This document shows, piece by piece, positions 10,358 through 39,131 of a DNA stretch of 64,000 bases. Position 1 is the first letter of the stretch. Each line of letters begins with the position of its first letter. Made by a program: the position numbers and the translations under genes. Under the pieces are notes generated by a model. It did not search any database. It saw only the letters and a list, made by a program, of their open reading frames with translations, and was not told the origin of the DNA. The DNA comes from an uncultured Chloroflexia bacterium (GTDB taxonomy: Bacteria > Chloroflexota > Dehalococcoidia > DSTF01 > JALHUB01). Where the stretch lies: positions 1,961,130 through 2,025,129 of the forward strand of contig OY969814.1 of assembly GCA_963703345.1 (NCBI GenBank). Direction: 5' to 3'.

Positions 10358-10432
10358 GGGCCCGTAGCTCAGCGGCAGAGCGGCCGGCTCATAACCGGTT
10401 GGTCGCAGGTTCGATCCCTGCCGGGCCCACCA
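10358..10432 (+). tRNA. tRNA-Met (anticodon CAT; G1:C72, so an elongator or Ile2-lysidine type rather than initiator)
   Basis: Hand-folded cloverleaf: acceptor GGGCCCG/CGGGCCC, D arm GCTC-AGCGGCA-GAGC, anticodon stem GCCGG/CCGGT with loop CTCATAA, T arm GCAGG-TTCGATC-CCTGC, discriminator A, encoded CCA. Confidence 0.9.
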
Positions 10433-11067: not shown

Positions 11068-12438
11068 TCAATCGGACTGCTCGCCGTCCTTCTTCGCCGT
11101 CTTCCGCAGCCGCTCGTACTCTTCCCAGATGCGTTTCTCCCAGCCCAGCTCGCCCGGCTGATAGTAGCGCCGGCCGCGAAGACGCTCCGGCAGGTGCTCC
11201 TGCTCGACCTGATGCCCCTGGAAGGAGTGCGCGTACTTGTAGTCGCGCCCGTACCCCAGCTCGCGCATGAGGCCGGTGACGGCGTTGCGCAGGTGCAGCG
11301 GCACGGGGTCGTTCCGCATCTCGCGGGCGTCGGCTACGGCGCGACCATAGCCGGTGAGCGCCGAGTTGCTCTTGGGCGCCGTCGCCAGGTAGATCGCGCA
11401 CTCCGCCATCGGCAGGTACCCCTCCGGCATGCCGACGAAGTGGACCGCCTGCTGGCACGCCGTCGCGACGACCAGCGCCTGCGGGTCCGCCAGCCCGACG
11501 TCCTCGGCGGCAAGGATGACCATTCGCCGCACGACGAAGAGCGCGTCCTCGCCCGCCTCGATCATGCGGGCCAGCCAGTAGAGGGCGGCATCGGGGTCGG
11601 AGTCGCGCAGAGACTTGATGAAAGCGGAGATGGTGTCGTAGTGCGCCTCACCGGCCTGATCGTAGAGGTACGTCCGGTGCTGAAGCGCCTCCTCGATGAG
11701 GGCGGCGGTGATTCGCCTGACGCCCTGTTCGTCCGGCGACGCGGCGGCCGCGGCGAGCTCGAGCGCGTTCAGGGCGATGCGTGCGTCGCCGCCGCTGCTT
11801 GCCGCCAGAGTCGCGATTACGTCGTCGTCGATCTCCGGCTTCTCGCGGCCGAGCCCTCGCTCCTCGTCCGCCAGCGCCCGTCGCAGAATCGTCTCCACCT
11901 GTTTCGGCGTCAGCAGGTTCAGCGTGTAGACGCGGCTGCGCGACAGCAACGGCCCGATGACTTCGAACGATGGGTTCTCCGTGGTCGCGCCGATGAGCGT
12001 GACGGTGCCCTCTTCGACGTGCGGGAGGATGACGTCTTGCTGGGCCTTGTTGAAGCGGTGGATCTCGTCGATGAAGAGGATTGTGCGCTGGCCGTAAAGG
12101 GCGCGGCGGTCGCGCGCCTCGGCGACGATGCGACGCAGGTCGCCGACGCCGGCGGTGACGGCGGAGATCGGCTCGAAGTGCGACTTCGTCTGGGCGGAGA
12201 TGATGCGGGCGAGCGTGGTCTTGCCGCTTCCCGGCGGGCCCCAGAAGATCATCGACGGCACCTGGTCGGACTCGATGAGACGCCGGAGCAGCCGGTCTTC
12301 GCCGACGAGGTGCTCCTGGCCCACGAACTCATCGAAGCTGCGCGGCCGCATTCGAGCGGCCAGGGGCGCCTCGCGCTCGCTCTGGGCGCGGGCCCGCTCC
12401 TCGAACATGTCGGGGCGCTTAGGCTTCCTTCGATCCAT
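11068..12438 (-). CDS. rarA: replication-associated recombination protein A (AAA+ ATPase MgsA/RarA)
   Basis: [44 protein letters not shown]...[36 protein letters not shown]. Confidence 0.9.
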
Positions 12439-30816: not shown

Positions 30817-31491
30817 TTACTCGATTTTGGCTCCCTTGGTGAGATTGTGGCGCGCGCATAGAATTCGAACGTTGTTCGGTGTGAGGCCCGTGCCGCCTTT
30901 GGAGAAGGGTAATTCGTGATCGAAATGCAACTGGTCTTCTGCGCCGCACATCACGCACCGACCCTTGTCGCGTTTGTAGACAACTTGCTTCACCCATGCG
31001 GGGATAGCCCGACGAAACTGCGCAGACTCGGCTGTCTGCCGGGCCTCGTCTGGCTGATCCGACAGCCGCATGCGGAACTTGAAGACTCTCCGCGCGCCCG
31101 CTCCGGCGTAATCGCAACCGACCAACTCAAACAGACCTTTGTCTGACCAAATCCCAGGGCGAAGCTTCTCGTAGACCCGGACGAGGCACTTTCCCGCGGG
31201 GAAAGAGGCCGCCGCCCTGGCGAACTTCGCGTTTTCCGTCGGGTCGCCGGAAGGAAGAGCCCACGGTTGATCCACAGACTTGGGCTCGATGCCTAGCTGT
31301 CTCTTCTCATCATGGCCTTCATAGAGAAGTTCAGAGCCGTCAAGCGACAACGAGTCTTCATACGGCGCGCCCGGCCGGCGAGACATAAGCACGACGGAAA
31401 CAGCAGGCGGCTCGCGGTAGTACATGCCGCGCTGCAATGACCCCTTCTCCCGAGCGCACATTTCCCAGTAGGTCAGGATCTCGTCGCGCAA
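30817..31491 (-). CDS. SRA(YDG)-like domain + HNH nuclease, a putative modification-dependent (type IV) restriction endonuclease
   Basis: C-terminal HNH (CVMCGAEDQLHFDHELPFSKGG...NVRILCARHNLTKG); N-terminal VVLMSRRPGAPYEDSLSLDGSELLYEGHD resembles the SRA/YDG fold (YEDxxDxG...YxGxG); the start ATG overlaps the uvrA stop. Confidence 0.6.
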   Translation of the reverse strand: MRDEILTYWEMCAREKGSLQRGMYYREPPAVSVVLMSRRPGAPYEDSLSLDGSELLYEGHDEKRQLGIEPKSVDQPWALPSGDPTENAKFARAAASFPAGKCLVRVYEKLRPGIWSDKGLFELVGCDYAGAGARRVFKFRMRLSDQPDEARQTAESAQFRRAIPAWVKQVVYKRDKGRCVMCGAEDQLHFDHELPFSKGGTGLTPNNVRILCARHNLTKGAKIE

Positions 31492-31494
31492 GAT

Positions 31495-34404
<2,910 letters not shown>

Positions 34405-34658
34405 GGCTCCTTTGTCGGGGTAGTTGCGTTCAGTCCGAACGTCTATTTTAGCATTTCGGGAAGAGGGCGAACAACGGATCCCCGTTCATCGTTCGCAGAG
34501 TCGGCTCGTTTGCCATGCGGATCTTCCCCAGCGGCCGTATTCGTCGGTTCCCCTTGACAGGTCACCAGTCGTATGGTACTGTTCCTATGGCTTCAGTTGC
34601 CACTGGCACACTTGCTATGTACCCAGAGCACTGATATCATATTGAAAGAGGCAGGCAA

Positions 34659-35129
34659 ATGGAAAAAGACGAGAACCAGAAGCGCGCGATCGAGATCGCC
34701 GAGGCGGAGGTTAGCTACTGGCGGGAGGAGGTGGTGCGTGCGAAGGAGCGCTCTGAGAAGGAAATCGCACGATACCAGGAGGTCGCCGAGAAGTTCAGAA
34801 CGGCCGCAGAGTTCCTCGGCCTCGTCGAGGAGCGCTACGGAAGGAGTGTGAAGTCAGGGCCCACCCAACTGCCCCCGGGTGCCAAGCTGGGTGAAGCCGC
34901 TCTTGATGTTGTTAGGCAAAAGGGTCGGGCCACGAGGGAGGAGATTGTCGCTGAACTGCGCGCTCGTGGTTTCGAGTTTGGCAGATATCCCGCGCGGCAA
35001 CTGCATTTCGCCCTGCTCAATAGCGACAGGGTGATCAGGGAGCCTAGCGGCGCCTGGCGGTGGAAAGGTGCAGACCAGAAAGAAATGGCGCTGGCCAGCG
35101 AAGGCGCCAGGGAGCCGACGAGAGAATAG
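34659..35129 (+). CDS. hypothetical protein: N-terminal coiled coil, C-terminal possibly winged-helix-like domain
   Basis: MEKDENQKRAIEIAEAEVSYWREEVVRAKERSEKEIARYQEV...GRATREEIVAELRARGFEF...; SD agagg; sits in a locally lower-GC region between uvrA and tRNA-Ser. Confidence 0.5.
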   Translation: MEKDENQKRAIEIAEAEVSYWREEVVRAKERSEKEIARYQEVAEKFRTAAEFLGLVEERYGRSVKSGPTQLPPGAKLGEAALDVVRQKGRATREEIVAELRARGFEFGRYPARQLHFALLNSDRVIREPSGAWRWKGADQKEMALASEGAREPTRE

Positions 35130-35184: not shown

Positions 35185-35273
35185 GCCGGTGTGGTGAAAT
35201 TGGGAAACACAGCCGTCTTGAAAACGGTCGTGGTTTCGACCACTTGGGGGTTCGAGTCCCCCCACCGGCACCA
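35185..35273 (+). tRNA. tRNA-Ser (anticodon TGA), class II tRNA with a long variable arm
   Basis: Acceptor GCCGGTG/CACCGGC, D stem GTG/CAC, anticodon stem GCCGT/ACGGT with loop CTTGAAA, variable arm CGTGGTTTCGACCACTTG, T arm GGGGG-TTCGAGT-CCCCC, encoded CCA. Confidence 0.85.
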
Positions 35274-35405
35274 GATAGCTCTTGCCCCGGGAGAAAGGCC
35301 GCAAGCGCAGCCGCTTCCCGCGTTCCATTCTAATACATCGGTCGATACAGCGTGTCAACACATCCTCCGGGCGCAACGGCCCGGACTGGCCGACTGAAGG
35401 TCATT

Positions 35406-35477
35406 CCTAGAAGGGCTTTGGGAAATCAGGGGGACACCGCCTGAAACCCCCGGAAGAGGGGGAACATCCCCCTCTTC
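35406..35477. repeat. copy A of a ~57-nt intergenic repeat, with a nested 10-bp hairpin GAAGAGGGGG-aacat-CCCCCTCTTC
   Basis: CCTAGAAGGGCTTTGGGAAATCAGGGGGACACCGCCTGAAACCCCCGGAAGAGGGGG is about 75% identical to copy B at 37037-37091. Confidence 0.6.
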
Positions 35478-35498
35478 ACTCCCCTTGCGACGCAGAAG

Positions 35499-36137
35499 TC
35501 AAACGCGGGATTCGAACTCGTCGAGCTTGCGTTCGAGGTCGCGCTGACGGACCGCGAGGGTCAGGTCGCCGCGGGTGCGCTCGAGGATGCCGCGGACGGC
35601 GTCGGCGGTGCGACGGAGGCCGCTGGTTATTGCCTCCGGGTAGTCGAACGTGACGAGAAGGCTGTAGATGTCGTCCATATTGCCGAGGCAAACTTCGCAC
35701 TGGCTGACGTCGCCGGAGCGTAGGGCATCGAGCAGGTGGCGTCGCAGCTCGCCCACCGCTTCGCCGAGGCCGTTCAGATAGGCGCCGTTTTCGACGCCGA
35801 GGTCCTTCGGGCCGGGCAGCGGTCGAGCGGCGATGAGGGCGAGGGTGGTGCAGCCTTCCGCATACTCCTTCTGGGCGTCGTGGACGAAGCCGGCGAAGTA
35901 GATGTCCGGATGGTCGGCGAGGGCGAGGCGGGCGCGCTCGAGGAGCTCGGCCGCCTGGCGCAGGAGCTCTTCGGCGCCGGGGAAGTCGCCGCGGTGGGTA
36001 ACGCGGACGGCGTTGGCGGAATGGCGCAGGGCCTGGCGGCAGGAGGCGAGACCGATCTCGCGGGCGGCGTGCTTGGCCTCGAAGTCTTTTCGAGTGTTCT
36101 CGACGATTGCTTCCAGCTCCTTGCTGCGGTCGTACAT
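35499..36137 (-). CDS. translin-family protein (bacterial translin/TRAX-like)
   Basis: All-helical, 212 aa; ...AAREIGLASCRQALRHSANAVRVTHRGDFPGAEELLRQAAELL...YAEGCTTLALI...NGLGEAVGELRRHLLDALRSGD...LRRTADAVRGILERTRGDLTLA matches the translin pattern (…SRxAIxxLHRG…AEELLxEA…EYxEA…GLxDLxGELRR…LRxKqDvaRglvErTRgdltla). Confidence 0.6.
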   Translation of the reverse strand: MYDRSKELEAIVENTRKDFEAKHAAREIGLASCRQALRHSANAVRVTHRGDFPGAEELLRQAAELLERARLALADHPDIYFAGFVHDAQKEYAEGCTTLALIAARPLPGPKDLGVENGAYLNGLGEAVGELRRHLLDALRSGDVSQCEVCLGNMDDIYSLLVTFDYPEAITSGLRRTADAVRGILERTRGDLTLAVRQRDLERKLDEFESRV

Positions 36138-36153
36138 CGGCTTCTCCTTCAGC

Positions 36154-36489
36154 CTAATCGGTTAGAGGCGGCGGCAGGTCGCCTTCGCGGGCGGCGTCGA
36201 TCATCTTGCGCGTCTGGCCAGGCATCTCTTCGCCCATCTCTTTGAAGCGTCGCTCGACCCAGCGGCCGATCTGGCGCGGGTCGCGGTAGTCTTCGAGGCG
36301 TTTGGGCTCGCTGCCGTACTTGGCGAGGATGGTCTGCTCAGACTTATGGTAAGCGAAGCCGGAGACGGCGCGGGAGAGGTTGGCGCCGCCGCAATGACGG
36401 CAGCTAGCGGCGACTCCGCCGCTGATGGACTTGACGAAGACGCTGGTCAGGCGGCCGCAGTCCTGGCACTTGTATTCGTAGATCGGCAT
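36154..36489 (-). CDS. FmdB-family zinc-ribbon protein, copy 1
   Basis: MPIYEYKCQDCGRLTSVF...CRHCGGANLSRAVS has the CxxC...CxxC Zn ribbon of PF09723; the start was moved to the MPIYEY ATG. Confidence 0.75.
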   Translation of the reverse strand: MPIYEYKCQDCGRLTSVFVKSISGGVAASCRHCGGANLSRAVSGFAYHKSEQTILAKYGSEPKRLEDYRDPRQIGRWVERRFKEMGEEMPGQTRKMIDAAREGDLPPPLTD

Positions 36490-36532
36490 GGTTGAGCCTA
36501 CGTCGCGATTCAGTCCACAGACAATATAGCAG

Positions 36533-36907
36533 TTATTCCTCTTCGAGGGGAAAGGCGCCGCCGTCCTCGTCCTCACCGATGTCGTCGGGCATTTCGCCGG
36601 CTTCCATCCGGTCGATCATCTCTTCGAACTCCGGCTCCACCTCCTCGCCCATCTTCGACTGCACCTTGCGAGCGAAGGCGGCGACGCTGCGCGGGTCGTC
36701 TTCATCGACGCCGGACAGGAGGGAGTCGTCGTCAAGGGAGTCGAGGCGCTGGTCTTCGGTGCGCACGACGGCGAAGCGGGAGACAAGGCGCGTCAGGTCG
36801 TCGGCGCCGCAATTCGGGCAGACGGCAGGCGTCGATGAGCTTATCGAGCGCCGGAAGACGGTGACGCGCTTCTTGCACCGGTTGCAGCGGAATTCGTAGA
36901 TGGGCAT
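36533..36907 (-). CDS. FmdB-family zinc-ribbon protein, copy 2, with an acidic C-terminal tail
   Basis: MPIYEFRCNRCKKRVTVF...CPNCGADDLTRLVS, then a D/E-rich tail; tandem paralog of copy 1. Confidence 0.75.
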   Translation of the reverse strand: MPIYEFRCNRCKKRVTVFRRSISSSTPAVCPNCGADDLTRLVSRFAVVRTEDQRLDSLDDDSLLSGVDEDDPRSVAAFARKVQSKMGEEVEPEFEEMIDRMEAGEMPDDIGEDEDGGAFPLEEE

Positions 36908-37036
36908 TTCTATTCGGCTTTCAGCCAAGCCCGCAAACGGAGTCGATTTCGCCGTATCGCGCAAGCACGCCAACGGCGTCGGTGCTCTCGCCGTAACATC
37001 GGCGATCTATTTCCCACCCGCCCGCCCTAGGAGGGT

Positions 37037-37091
37037 TTCTTGGGAATCAAGGGGACACCCCTTGAACCCTCCTCCAGAGGCGGACCTTCGG
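37037..37091. repeat. copy B of the ~57-nt intergenic repeat (nested hairpins GGAGGGTT...AACCCTCC and CAAGGGG-aca-CCCCTTG)
   Basis: CCTAGGAGGGTTTCTTGGGAATCAAGGGGACACCCCTTGAACCCTCCTCCAGAGGCGG. Confidence 0.6.
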
Positions 37092-37140
37092 CCGGCAAAG
37101 GGGCTTCGCCCTCTGCACTCCCTATTCGGGCAACCATCCG

Positions 37141-37881
37141 TCAAGCCGAGGACAGGCGGCGGCCGACGATCTCCTCGCGGCTGGGGCAGAGGGCCTGGTA
37201 GTCGCAGAAGGCGCAATGCCTGCCCACGTTCGTCTGGTAGTCGCGCTCCGTCACTATTTCGTTGTAGGCGGCGGTCACGGCGGCGACGGCCTCTTCCAGC
37301 TCTCGACGCTGCGGGCTCGTTGACCATGCGGAGCCGTCGTCGAGATAGAGGTACGAGGCGCGGCCTACGGGACGGCCGAGGCCCCTCTCCAGCATCACAG
37401 CATAGATGTGAAGCTGTTGAACGTCGATCTCCTCCGGGCGGCGGCCGGTCTTGTAGTCGATTATGTGAAGTCCGTCGGCATCGTCGTCAACGCGGTCGAT
37501 GCGGCCGAGGAGGGCGAGCTGGGCGCTGATCGGCGTCTCGAGATAGGACTCGAGGAGGAGCGGACGGGCGGCGAGATCGTTGCTGCGGGCGAAGCTGTGG
37601 AGCTGGTTCGTCGCGCGTTCCCGCCAGCGCTCTTCGTCTTCGAGGTCGCTGAAGCCGGAGCGATTCTGCTGCCAGCTTTCGTGAAGGAGGTCGAGGAGTC
37701 GCTCGGGGGTGCGTTCAGCCGGTTCGGGCAGGGAGAAGAAGGCTTTGAGGGCGTTGTGGACGTGGGCGCCCATTGTGTTGTAGGGGGAAGGACGCGTGGG
37801 CAGGCGCTCGACGTACTGGTATCGGTAGCGCCGGCGGCACTGGCGGAAGACGCGGAGGCGGAAGGATGAGAGTTTGAACAT
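37141..37881 (-). CDS. PD-(D/E)XK nuclease, Cas4/RecB-like, with a putative Fe-S cysteine cluster; stand-alone with no CRISPR-cas nearby
   Basis: IIDYKTG (D-ExK core), C-terminal CAFCDYQALC plus an N-terminal Cys, as in Cas4/AddB-type Fe-S nuclease domains. Confidence 0.7.
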   Translation of the reverse strand: MFKLSSFRLRVFRQCRRRYRYQYVERLPTRPSPYNTMGAHVHNALKAFFSLPEPAERTPERLLDLLHESWQQNRSGFSDLEDEERWRERATNQLHSFARSNDLAARPLLLESYLETPISAQLALLGRIDRVDDDADGLHIIDYKTGRRPEEIDVQQLHIYAVMLERGLGRPVGRASYLYLDDGSAWSTSPQRRELEEAVAAVTAAYNEIVTERDYQTNVGRHCAFCDYQALCPSREEIVGRRLSSA

Positions 37882-37882
37882 G

Positions 37883-38278
37883 CTATCGCGTCGGCAGCGC
37901 CGGCAGGTCGTCGGCGCTGAAGGCGTTCTCGATGTGCTCCAGGCGAAGGAGCCGGCCGCCGGGCGTCAGTTCGACGGCGATGACATCGATGCGACGCTCG
38001 GGCGCGGCCTGCGGATGTTGCTGGCAGTAGGCGTCGGCGGCGGCGACCAGGCGGGCGCACTTGAGCGGCGTGACCGATTCGATGGCTGTGCCCATGGCGT
38101 CGCCGCGGCGCGTACGCACTTCGACGAAGACGAGACAGCCGTCGCTCTGCGCGATTATGTCAATTTCGCCCTCACGACAGCGGAAGTTGCGATCGAGGAT
38201 TGCGTAGCCCTTCGCTTCCAGGTGGGCGACGGCGAGTCGCTCGCCGAAGCGGCCGAGTCGGACGCGCTCGTCGCTCAT
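37883..38278 (-). CDS. yraN: YraN family endonuclease (UPF0102)
   Basis: GERLAVAHLEAKGYAILDRNFRCREGEIDIIAQSDGCLVFVEVRTRRG. Confidence 0.85.
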   Translation of the reverse strand: MSDERVRLGRFGERLAVAHLEAKGYAILDRNFRCREGEIDIIAQSDGCLVFVEVRTRRGDAMGTAIESVTPLKCARLVAAADAYCQQHPQAAPERRIDVIAVELTPGGRLLRLEHIENAFSADDLPALPTR

Positions 38279-38913
38279 GCCGGCCTCCCGACGAGGCGTT
38301 CGCGGACGGGGGCGAAGGAGCGCCGGTGAATGGGACAGGGGCCGTGCCTAACCAGCGCTTCGAGGTGCTCGGCGGTGGAGTAGCCCTTGTGATGGCGGAA
38401 GCCGTACTCGGGGTAGAGGGCGTCGTAGAGCAGCATGATGCGGTCGCGGTGGACTTTGGCGACGATCGAAGCGGCGGCGATGGAGAGAGAAAGGGCATCG
38501 CCGTCGATGATCGCGCTCTGGGGGATGCCGACCTCGGGCAGCATGAAAGCGTCGATGAGGGCGTACTCGGCAGGCGGCGTAAGGCCGGCGAGGGCCTCGG
38601 CCATGGCCAGCCGGGCGGCGGGCGCGATGCCCAGGGCGTCGATCCGCTGGGGAACGACGGCGCCGAGACCGACTGCGAGGGCTTTGGCGCGGATCTTCTC
38701 GGCGAGGTCTTCTCGCCTGGCGGCAGGCAGGAGCTTGCTATCGCGAACGTCGGCGAGCCAGGCGAAGCGGGCGCGTGGCGGCAGGATGACCGCGGCGGCG
38801 ACCACGGGACCGGCGAGGGGACCGCGTCCGACCTCGTCGACGCCGGCGATAAGGCGAAGGCCCTGCTTCCAGAGGGGTCGCTCGTAATCGAAGGTCGGGC
38901 GGAGGGCCATCAT
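38275..38913 (-). CDS. rnhB: ribonuclease HII
   Basis: LIAGVDEVGRGPLAGPVVAAAVIL; start taken at MMALRP (38913), with an alternative at 38940 or 39018. Confidence 0.88.
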   Translation of the reverse strand: MMALRPTFDYERPLWKQGLRLIAGVDEVGRGPLAGPVVAAAVILPPRARFAWLADVRDSKLLPAARREDLAEKIRAKALAVGLGAVVPQRIDALGIAPAARLAMAEALAGLTPPAEYALIDAFMLPEVGIPQSAIIDGDALSLSIAAASIVAKVHRDRIMLLYDALYPEYGFRHHKGYSTAEHLEALVRHGPCPIHRRSFAPVRERLVGRPA

Positions 38914-39131
38914 CGCCTCCGGCGGTTCAATGCATACCATTTCTGCAGACGATGGTAGCACGGGCAAAGTCGGGAAGGAAGGGAGGTCTTGCCCACCACG
39001 TCGGCGTAGTGCCGGCAACCGCGCCGCGTGACAGTGGCGTGTTTCAGCCCTCCAGACGCGGGCAGGCTCCGCCCGCTCCTAAGTGGTATCATCGCTGCGA
39101 TCGTGATGATCGAAGCGAAAGGAGAGGATAG

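Follow-up and report, generated by a model that had tools for sequence, protein, structure and literature searches.

We analysed a window of 64,000 nucleotides (nt) from an uncultured Chloroflexia bacterium (Chloroflexota; Dehalococcoidia; contig OY969814.1, positions 1,961,130 to 2,025,129), in which a group of minus-strand genes is interspersed with two copies, A and B, of a structured repeat. Along the minus strand the order is rnhB, yraN, a gene for a PD-(D/E)XK nuclease (PDDEXK), a 233-nt spacer with copy B, fmdB2, fmdB1, a TRAX gene and copy A. A first-pass annotation of this DNA had taken the segment between the repeats, which adjoins a tRNA gene, for a cassette that had integrated there or for a defence module. 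We show here that the genes form a conserved, native operon, and that the repeats are independent members of a dispersed, high-copy and strand-specific family of structured intergenic elements in Dehalococcoidia and other Chloroflexota. The features of the locus, in positions of the window, are the following.

31495-34404, minus strand: uvrA, which in relatives lies on the same strand directly after the TRAX gene.
34659-35129, plus strand: ORF156, an orphan open reading frame (ORF) of 156 amino acids (aa), lineage-specific; it and tRNA-Ser occupy the variable slot that separates TRAX from uvrA.
35185-35273, plus strand: tRNA-Ser(TGA), found with ARAGORN and Rfam, convergent with the operon.
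35406-35485, minus strand: repeat copy A, the three-way-junction module only, delimited with the covariance model CM R1 (see below).
35426-35445, minus strand: hairpin 2 of copy A, TTCAGGCGG-TGT-CCCCCTGA; its stem contains a single G·G mismatch.
35499-36137, minus strand: gene for a TRAX-like nuclease (translin superfamily, C3PO-type), 212 aa (PDB 3zc1, PRK14562).
36154-36489, minus strand: fmdB1, an FmdB-family zinc-ribbon protein of 111 aa starting MPIYEY (Zn_ribbon_8 5e-12, TIGR02605 6.5e-14).
36533-36907, minus strand: fmdB2, an FmdB-family zinc-ribbon protein of 124 aa starting MPIYEF (Zn_ribbon_8 1.9e-13, TIGR02605 3.8e-15).
36984-37127, minus strand: repeat copy B, full-length, in the spacer between PDDEXK and fmdB2 (CM R1).
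37013-37027, minus strand: G-quadruplex (G4) motif GGGCGGGCGGGTGGG inside copy B.
37047-37066, minus strand: hairpin 2 of copy B, TTCAAGGGG-TGT-CCCCTTGA; no other part of the family is conserved as well as this core.
37141-37881, minus strand: stand-alone Cas4/RecB-like PD-(D/E)XK nuclease, 246 aa (PDDEXK_1 2.2e-37).
37883-38278, minus strand: yraN (UPF0102; Pfam UPF0102 1.6e-29, NF009154 4.5e-41).
38275-39018, minus strand: rnhB (RNase HII), given as the longest ORF, with an uncertain start codon; RNase_HII is found at the same place in relatives.

The gene calls of the first-pass annotation, namely a translin homolog (TRAX), two FmdB proteins and a Cas4-like nuclease followed by yraN and rnhB, were borne out by Pfam, NCBIfam and PDB searches, and tRNA-Ser(TGA) lies where it had been placed. 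The TRAX-like protein matches the TRAX of Archaeoglobus fulgidus (PDB 3zc1) over residues 12-195 (E=7.5e-27) and the NCBIfam family PRK14562 (7e-83), and its similarity to the single-subunit C3PO proteins of archaea and Chloroflexi (AfTRAX 3zc1, NeC3PO 5jr9) is full-length. Its acidic residues E91-x2-E94...E126-x3-E130 follow the pattern of the catalytic residues E82/E85/D117/E121 of NeC3PO (PMC5100593). The third catalytic position is Glu in place of Asp; all four positions are acidic. Translin homologs had been described as rare in bacteria, which is not so in this lineage: the protein has more than 6000 translin/TRAX homologs, many of them labelled Dehalococcoidia, and single translin-superfamily genes in Chloroflexi have already been published (PMC5100593). 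Both FmdB proteins score above the TIGR02605 cut-off (51.7 and 55.7 bits vs 31.3). The nuclease is, as judged from its translation, a protein of the PD-(D/E)XK fold class with four cysteines, C15, C222, C225 and C231, in a Cas4-type arrangement (C-X206-C-X2-C-X5-C). A role as the Cas4 of CRISPR adaptation was rejected because the score remains below the Cas4 equivalog cut-off (TIGR00372, 50.9 bits vs 65; Cas_Cas4 1.3e-5; PADLOC Cas4 4.9e-15) and because every relative has yraN and fmdB on either side of the gene. The Rfam scan detected no CRISPR repeat family in the window.

The idea of a small integrated cassette, or of a defence or nucleic-acid-processing island at tRNA-Ser that is bounded by att-like direct repeats, has some points in its favour. 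A tRNA gene is nearby, three genes are flanked by two direct repeats, and nuclease-type genes (TRAX and Cas4-like) are present. A comparison with relatives gives a different picture. The order (ftsH, tautomerase)/rnhB-yraN-PDDEXK-fmdB-fmdB-TRAX-uvrA is shared by the contexts of TRAX homologs with 90, 85, 79, 74, 70 and 68% identity. Among the DNA stretches from other genomes that served for comparison (loci L001-L127), the synteny of the gene block is kept in L001, L002, L005, L123-L127 and L065; one lineage without the PDDEXK gene and uvrA still has yraN-fmdB-fmdB-TRAX. When the tRNA-Ser site was compared, fmdB-fmdB-TRAX was present in L001, L002 and L005 and the tRNA was missing from the slot in all three; the slot between TRAX and uvrA in relatives is either empty or occupied by unrelated genes, and neither tRNA-Ser nor ORF156 is present in any of the relatives. 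In L125 and L126 the operon spacers measure 7-19 nt and the operon contains zero repeat elements.

The composition of the genes is equally native. The GC content at third codon positions (GC3) is 0.83-0.85 for TRAX, fmdB1, fmdB2 and the nuclease gene, much as in the core neighbours (0.83-0.89; uvrA and yraN alike), and 0.71 for ORF156; the three genes between the repeats have 0.84-0.85, and TRAX itself has 0.85. The locally lower GC that had been reported for this segment exists as a slight dip (0.61 vs 0.653), which affects only ORF156, the spacer between it and uvrA, and the tRNA. No integrase or recombinase turned up when all ORFs between 30.8 and 38.3 kb were scanned against Pfam and NCBIfam. 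With ≤3 mismatches allowed, the window has a single occurrence of the 26-mer that ends the tRNA at its 3' side, so that no duplicate of this end was found, and the repeats lie 133 nt and ~1.7 kb away from the tRNA without overlapping it. The PADLOC defence models matched the Cas4-like protein only. Furthermore, A and B come from different subfamilies, with a likeness of only 62%, and the same repeat adjoins hundreds of unrelated genes elsewhere.

An att-flanked tRNA island and a defence module were both rejected on these grounds. The cassette reading is unsupported because of the conserved synteny, the native GC3 and the absence of an integrase, of a duplicated tRNA end and of any further defence match; we consider it hardly credible. 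What was found instead is essentially the combination of a dispersed repeat and conserved synteny that the first-pass annotation itself had named as the sign of a core-genome arrangement. The data show that rnhB-yraN-PDDEXK-fmdB-fmdB-TRAX(-uvrA) is a conserved, compositionally native and vertically inherited operon in at least eight related Dehalococcoidia genomes. They also show that ORF156 and tRNA-Ser are a separate, lineage-specific occupant of the variable TRAX/uvrA slot. ORF156 has no match in Pfam, NCBIfam or PADLOC, and of 5.8 billion proteins only one apart from itself, a relative with 68% identity, is homologous to it. A sigma70-like promoter is seen at 34612-34640, ahead of ORF156, and a GC hairpin past its stop codon.

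Both repeats of the first-pass annotation are real. A degenerate 25-nt core matches only positions 35421-35445 and 37042-37066 of the window, with 0 matches expected from shuffles. The covariance model CM R1, which was built from 50 copies in other genomes and run over the window with filters off, recovered exactly the same two sites. Both matches are on the minus strand, and this gene-sense strand is the functional strand of the two repeats. The locations thus stood, while the size of ~57 nt did not: copy B is 144 nt and copy A 80 nt long. Copy B (80.7 bits, E=2.9e-19) covers the whole model, positions 1-127, and carries an additional ~29-nt insert inside or after hairpin 1. Copy A (69.6 bits, E=2e-16) covers model positions 7-85 only and begins 13 nt past the TRAX stop codon; its homology to a full-length copy from L001 ends at CTAGG, the junction between modules 1 and 2, before the G4 tract. 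The two copies agree in 62% of positions. Copy A shares 84% identity with a copy in L085, from the metagenome-assembled genome (MAG) N6_292, and 82% with the copy that L001 has at the same site. The best matches of copy B are the same-site copies in L065, L002 and L010, and same-site copies in L002, L127, L010 and L065 are 84-90% identical to it. Since A is closer to the N6_292 and L001 copies and B to the same-site copies, A and B belong to a family independently of each other and are not the products of one integration. The earlier remark that neither copy has a U-tract behind it was confirmed; UUCCC comes next after hairpin 2, and neither A nor B was reported to have a terminator-like site. 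An intrinsic (Rho-independent) terminator was rejected for this reason, because at A and B the GC hairpin is present and the U-tract absent.

Searches in other genomes uncovered a large family. The exact 20-nt core of hairpin 2 was found among species-representative genomes in at least 117 stretches, mostly from about 25 Dehalococcoidia/Chloroflexota MAGs. The fragmented MAG N6_292 alone has at least 49 exact-core copies on 35 contigs, and many of these contigs end inside a copy; the repeat family accounts for assembly breaks in Dehalococcoidia MAGs. CM R1 gave 136 matches at E<=1e-6 in 550 kb of loci from ~25 Chloroflexota MAGs. About 98 of them extend over the full model, about 28 end, like copy A, at model positions 77-94, and 8 are cut by contig ends. 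The alternative that had been kept beside the cassette idea, a family of small structured RNAs or REP-like elements, hence matches the data, in that the motif searched with the covariance model recurs across relatives as a dispersed, structured, high-copy family.

Nearly all copies (116 of 121, according to a composition-based ORF heuristic) are intergenic. The 142 flanking ORFs fall into 221 Pfam families of housekeeping or ordinary metabolic function, and no transposase is among the 25 commonest of these families. In the operon described here, different spacers are occupied in different genomes, which supports a dispersed family over a cassette. Elements follow TRAX in L001, L005 and L065, a contig of N6_292 with three copies in tandem; they lie between PDDEXK and fmdB2 in L002, L127, L010 and L065, and between fmdB2 and fmdB1 in L002, L127 and L065. 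Further sites are upstream of rnhB in L127, at 18888 in L005 and at 10392 in L125. The 5.4-kb contig L065, whose TRAX is 74% identical to that of the window, has six copies in the fmdB-fmdB-TRAX operon region, all on the gene strand: one before each fmdB, the three tandem copies after TRAX and one further on. Copies occur in same-strand, head-to-tail tandem arrays and inside tight operons. Both orientations are present in only 4 of 31 multi-copy loci, and the inverted pairs belong mainly to a Baikal subfamily. In the MAG Baikal-deep-G110 (L040, L041, L092), module 1 is followed ~60 nt later by an inverted second hairpin (GTGAGGGGACACCCCTCAC), and this REPIN-like pair is flanked by GGCAGGG...CCCTGCC.

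The family is apparently undescribed. With Rfam 15 (4227 models) only tRNAs passed the gathering threshold in the whole window, and Rfam scans by E-value of the region, of L002 and of 7 loci returned nothing significant. A recurrent weak match to Clostridiales-2 (15-20 bits vs 58.6 required) was discarded; it was not reproduced on consensus-like copies. Another weak Rfam match, to the Rhizobiales 'sRNA' Atu_L1 at 36847-36956 on the minus strand (26.8 bits vs 60, E=0.001), coincides with the ribosome-binding site and the opening codons of fmdB2 and probably reflects an FmdB-like ORF start in that Rfam family and not an RNA. An origin from phages or plasmids was also rejected: the core had 0 matches in IMG/VR, and the consensus had no phage match and two marginal matches to Paracoccus plasmids. 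No published description of the repeat family was found in the full-text literature on Dehalococcoidia/Chloroflexi or on G-quadruplex repeats, the coverage of which was incomplete.

The element is 80-140 nt long and consists of two modules, the second of which is optional. It has a sharp 5' boundary at GGGGGAGT, where the information content rises from ~0 upstream to near maximum, whereas the 3' side decays gradually after ...CCCACGCGCAC, at ~140 nt overall. There are no inverted terminal repeats, as the 5' end GGGGGAGTGCAG is not complementary to the 3' end ...CCCACGCGCAC, and the information-content profile contains no conserved target upstream of the 5' end. Module 1, of ~80 nt, is a three-way junction in which an outer stem, P1, encloses hairpin 1 and an arm made of P3 and hairpin 2. 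P1 pairs a 5' G-run with a C/U-run just ahead of the G tract; hairpin 1 has the form GYNCAGAGGGG-loop-CCCCUCUGNRC, P3 is GGG/CCC, and hairpin 2 is UUCARGGGG-UGU-CCCCYUGA.

This structure is supported by covariation, which we evaluated on 50 distinct copies and 500 shuffles. Paired cells amount to 94.1% vs 90.0% in the shuffles, none of which (0/500) reached the observed value; cells with a double change number 62 vs 23 expected, and pairing is 49-70% when the partners are slid. One compensatory pair in hairpin 1 is found as GC 28, CG 12 and UA 6 times and a second one as GC 35 and AU 12 times. A pair in the inner stem of hairpin 2 is divided into GC 25 and AU 25, with no mismatches in the 50 copies even though the search pattern allowed one. 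Further covarying variants are TCTGGGGG..CCCCCAGA and UCUGGGGG-UGU-CCCCCAGA. G·U cells (148) are far more frequent than A·C cells (14), and ~94% of cells are paired on the sense strand vs ~83% on the complement. The many G·U, the few A·C and the better pairing on the sense strand indicate that it is the gene-sense strand that folds.

Module 2 comprises a GGGNGGGNGGGNGGG tract, which lies 14-20 nt (mode 18) after hairpin 2, followed by ATGTT and a GC-rich tail. A strict G3N1G3N1G3N1G3 motif occurs at a fixed distance in 66 of 137 copies, and only its loop bases vary: loop 1 is mostly C/T (one A), loop 2 is C/T/A and loop 3 T/C. In 689 kb of loci at least 86 of the 90 strict G4 motifs are located inside elements, and the motif in copy B is the only G3N1 x4 in the 64-kb window, where 0.01 are expected. 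A ViennaRNA calculation that takes G4 into account placed a quadruplex in 51 of 52 minimum-free-energy structures, including that of copy B. With four G3 tracts and short, free loops, the tract is a canonical G-quadruplex motif as far as such predictions go. The ATGTT is located exactly 13 nt after the G4 tract in 56 of 61 copies. The possibility of a hidden small ORF was dismissed: the ORFs that start from ATGTT range from 4 to 175 aa and hold no conserved peptide, so ATGTT is not a conserved coding start. Other copies carry alternative 3' modules. A sigma70-like promoter module directed toward the downstream gene, CTCCCTTACAGA-N-CTGCTATCAT (TTACAG-N17-TATCAT), is seen after some variants (L014 at about 1095-1135; also L032, L107, L054 and L068). 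Among the dispersed repeats of bacteria, it is unusual to find a covarying junction combined with a canonical G4 whose loop bases are free.

Some copies of the main element (L024, L042, L080, L088, L105 and L026, from the MAGs N6_292, PFL39 and SPRUCE 355) in turn contain, nested at various positions, a tiny palindrome of another repeat family, (A)GCCTGCCCGCC-N4-GGCGGG(CAGG), which is REP-like in appearance. Hairpin 2 has a still wider occurrence. The Clostridia MAGs Lapin-004_bin86 and Lapin-021_bin14 contain a different, AT-richer repeat family with exactly the same hairpin 2, ...TTTACCGACAACACGGGGTTT-TTCAAGGGGTGTCCCCTTGA-ACGCGCCTTTTGGTACTTTTCCCCGCG... (L007, L034, L056, L060, L071, L074, L076, L098, L111, L119 and L122). 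Singletons of the type GGGGGWT-TTCAGGGGGTGTCCCCCTGA were seen in Lachnospiraceae, Oscillospiraceae, Spirochaetaceae, Brevinema and a Methanobacteriota MAG, and in the Chloroflexota genome BS517 (L103) the hairpin-2 core apparently lies between groES and groEL, by reading of the flanks. It is notable that hairpin 2, the core hairpin, recurs together with the G-run on its 5' side in other repeat families and other phyla.

The copies have a clear preference for one orientation. Of the 12 copies in loci where genes were called, every one has the same sense as one or more of the genes next to it. When genes are called heuristically, 23 copies in co-directional spacers are sense and 7 antisense, and the downstream gene is co-oriented with the element in 42 of 59 cases. 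All copies are on one strand in 23 of 27 multi-copy loci. In high-GC loci (L006-L122) the G-rich sense strand of the element is on the locally C-rich strand in 50 of 68 cases (p=1e-4). The GC skew of the window is alike for plus- and minus-strand genes (0.072 vs 0.057), which means that the skew here is not driven by coding. Gene orientation is confounded with local skew, and transcription and replication biases are therefore inseparable with these data; the link between the sense strand and the C-rich strand hints at a replication-strand asymmetry of the G4-bearing strand, confounded with gene orientation. The plus-strand GC skew of the window is negative before ~11 kb and positive after, with a cumulative minimum near 10-12 kb; the switch adjoins tRNA-Met (10358-10432) and an MgsA/RarA-like gene (11068-12438), and no dnaA is near it in the window.

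Between the window and four other species-level genomes, the copy in front of fmdB2 has an identity of 84-90%. For fmdB2 itself, the identity across these genomes is 81-94% at codon positions 1+2 and drops to 60-73% at position 3. The element is hence as conserved as the first and second codon positions of neighbouring genes, and an identity above that of the third positions of fmdB2 points to purifying selection, concerted evolution or recent spread.

We compared the family with known repeat systems. Repetitive extragenic palindromes (REP) and the bacterial interspersed mosaic elements (BIME) built from them occur in Enterobacteria and Pseudomonas, are associated with RAYT transposases, form REPINs, and are thought to stabilise upstream mRNA or to attenuate read-through. 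Our element shares with them a high copy number, an extragenic location, GC-rich imperfect palindromes with compensatory change, and clustered, modular arrangements that are often between cistrons or at 3' ends, where REP/BIME are co-transcribed. It differs in that it is an 80-140 nt three-way junction, in contrast to the single hairpin of 20-40 nt of a REP, and in its 5' end GGGGGAGT, in place of which REPs have a GTAG/CGTC tag. Its copies are mostly direct and not inverted (both orientations in 4/31 loci), no flanked RAYT gene is among the commonest families of the 142 flanking ORFs, and it has a conserved G-quadruplex tract. With BOX of Streptococcus pneumoniae, ERIC, RUP and the Correia/CREE miniature inverted-repeat transposable elements (MITEs) the family has in common a length of ~100-200 nt, modularity, intergenic location in many copies, a stable predicted RNA structure and the lack of an encoded transposase. 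The sequences are unrelated, however; none of those families is characterised by G·U pairing on one strand or by a G4 module at a fixed place, and Correia, ERIC and RUP have inverted terminal repeats, which our element lacks. A MITE was rejected on the basis of this lack, the gradual 3' boundary and the absence of a conserved upstream target.

Similarities to other systems are more limited. The TRIT motif of Mycobacterium tuberculosis is likewise a repeated, conserved, GC-rich structured motif downstream of genes in a high-GC host, whereas our elements are also seen in front of genes, between divergent genes and as tandem arrays, and have no U-tract. The pilE G4 of Neisseria (G3TG3TTG3TG3) is a single-copy recombination initiator. 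Like it, the G4 of our element is a canonical three-tetrad, short-loop and strand-specific motif with conserved G-tracts and free loop bases; unlike it, it is a module of a multi-copy repeat that is always ~18 nt after the hairpin junction. Genes for TIRYT, a RAYT-like tyrosine transposase, are flanked by terminal inverted repeats (TIRs) with the motif GGGGWSAS, and these TIRs make up moderately abundant repeat families in dimers or clusters (Di Nocera et al. 2013, PMC3733652). The likeness is restricted to 8 nt, the antisense loop and stem of hairpin 2 (GGGGACAC), and no TIRYT gene was seen beside any copy in the flanking-ORF survey. We take this sequence resemblance as a lead and not as a test. 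Taken as a whole, the element fails the defining features of REPs, MITEs and intrinsic terminators and shares with them copy number, extragenic location and the potential for RNA structure. It is a bacterial dispersed structured intergenic repeat, notable for its conserved canonical G-quadruplex module.

One further gene near the locus deserves mention. A minus-strand ORF of 224 aa just downstream of uvrA (30817-31491) has a C-terminal HNH domain (Pfam HNH, 7.5e-5) and weak matches to IscB-HNH and to type II restriction endonucleases. Its GC3 is 0.70 vs 0.83-0.89 in the neighbours, and it looks like a later acquisition.

Several explanations of the family were weighed. A cis-regulatory leader specific to the FmdB genes, such as a riboswitch or an attenuator, would agree with the elements that precede fmdB2 and/or fmdB1 by ~160 nt (in the window, L002, L127, L010 and L065) and with the high conservation of the copy at the fmdB2-upstream site. 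We regard it as very unlikely in view of the more than 200 other gene families that adjoin the same element, of elements after TRAX and after Fer4 genes, of the orthologous FmdB genes in L125, L126, L123, L005 and L001, which are devoid of it, and of the absence of an Rfam family match. Independently transcribed, trans-acting structured small RNA genes with their own promoters are improbable, albeit less so. The strong conservation of secondary structure and sequence and the sharp 5' boundary are what such genes would have. A promoter should then be conserved, whereas the information content is ~0 directly upstream of the 5' end; a U-tract terminator is missing, the 3' end is modular and variable, and copies stand head to tail and within tight operons.

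A more serious competitor, though in our opinion still a doubtful one, is a selfish element at the DNA level that has no role as RNA, with hairpins that fold in single-stranded DNA and are recognised by a trans-acting HUH/Y1 transposase (RAYT/TIRYT- or IS200/IS605-like). The G4 tract and the strand bias would in this case be features of DNA and replication. Patchy presence and absence at orthologous spacers, same-strand tandem arrays and a structure kept by compensatory change, as in REPINs, are all expected of such an element, as is a strand that tracks local GC skew (the 50 of 68 loci above), in the window independently of gene strand. The same hairpin is also found in other repeat families and phyla, and the antisense hairpin 2 (GGGGACAC) fits the GGGGWSAS motif (PMC3733652). 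On the other hand, the commonest families of the 142 flanking ORFs include no transposase, inverted terminal repeats, a conserved 5' target and the GTAG/CGTC tag are absent, and inverted pairs are rare (4/31 loci). Moreover, on the usual assumption of a G-rich leading strand, the strand that folds would be on the leading-strand template, which is the opposite of what an IS200/IS605-type element predicts.

The explanation that we favour, with some confidence, is that the elements are co-transcribed, REP/BIME-like, non-autonomous structured repeats, which sit as independent members in a native operon and act as RNA. They would be transcribed together with their neighbours in sense orientation, and the very stable junction and G-quadruplex may block 3'-to-5' decay and/or partly attenuate read-through. 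In this way an element could uncouple neighbouring cistrons in their expression, in the manner of REP/BIME, BOX and repeats like them. Their spread would be that of non-autonomous elements that depend on a trans-acting activity.

A number of points weigh against this explanation. Orientation is confounded with strand composition and could be explained by a DNA-level or replication-linked bias. The covariation and the G·T tolerance fit the folding of single-stranded DNA equally, and about one fifth of the copies in co-directional spacers seem to be antisense, according to heuristic gene calls. We found no mobilising enzyme, target site or target-site duplication; filled and empty spacers are too diverged to align. 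Finally, the high identity across species could result from concerted evolution or recent spread and not from function.

A more far-reaching reading is that the elements are a new class of functional structured RNA, in which a three-way junction is immediately followed by a parallel G-quadruplex, which is under purifying selection at orthologous operon spacers across Dehalococcoidia and which is present in tens to hundreds of sense copies per genome. We put this forward tentatively and think it rather unlikely. RNA G-quadruplexes have been reported to be depleted in bacterial transcriptomes. If the elements are such a class, these bacteria would be a clear exception to this depletion, and the elements could point to a dedicated partner for RNA processing or RNA binding. 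A candidate for this partner could be the G-rich-RNA-binding TRAX/C3PO homologue that is typical of the phylum.

For the annotation of this genome the analysis removes a false island or defence call and leaves fmdB-fmdB-TRAX, beside rnhB-yraN-PDDEXK and uvrA, as a conserved nucleic-acid-metabolism operon of Dehalococcoidia. It also brings out a very well conserved repeat family in a poorly studied and mostly uncultured class, for which the covariance model R1 is a ready marker. If the elements act at the DNA level, they would represent a new non-autonomous mobile element; if they are transcribed, they would offer a natural system for asking what role RNA G-quadruplexes play in bacteria.

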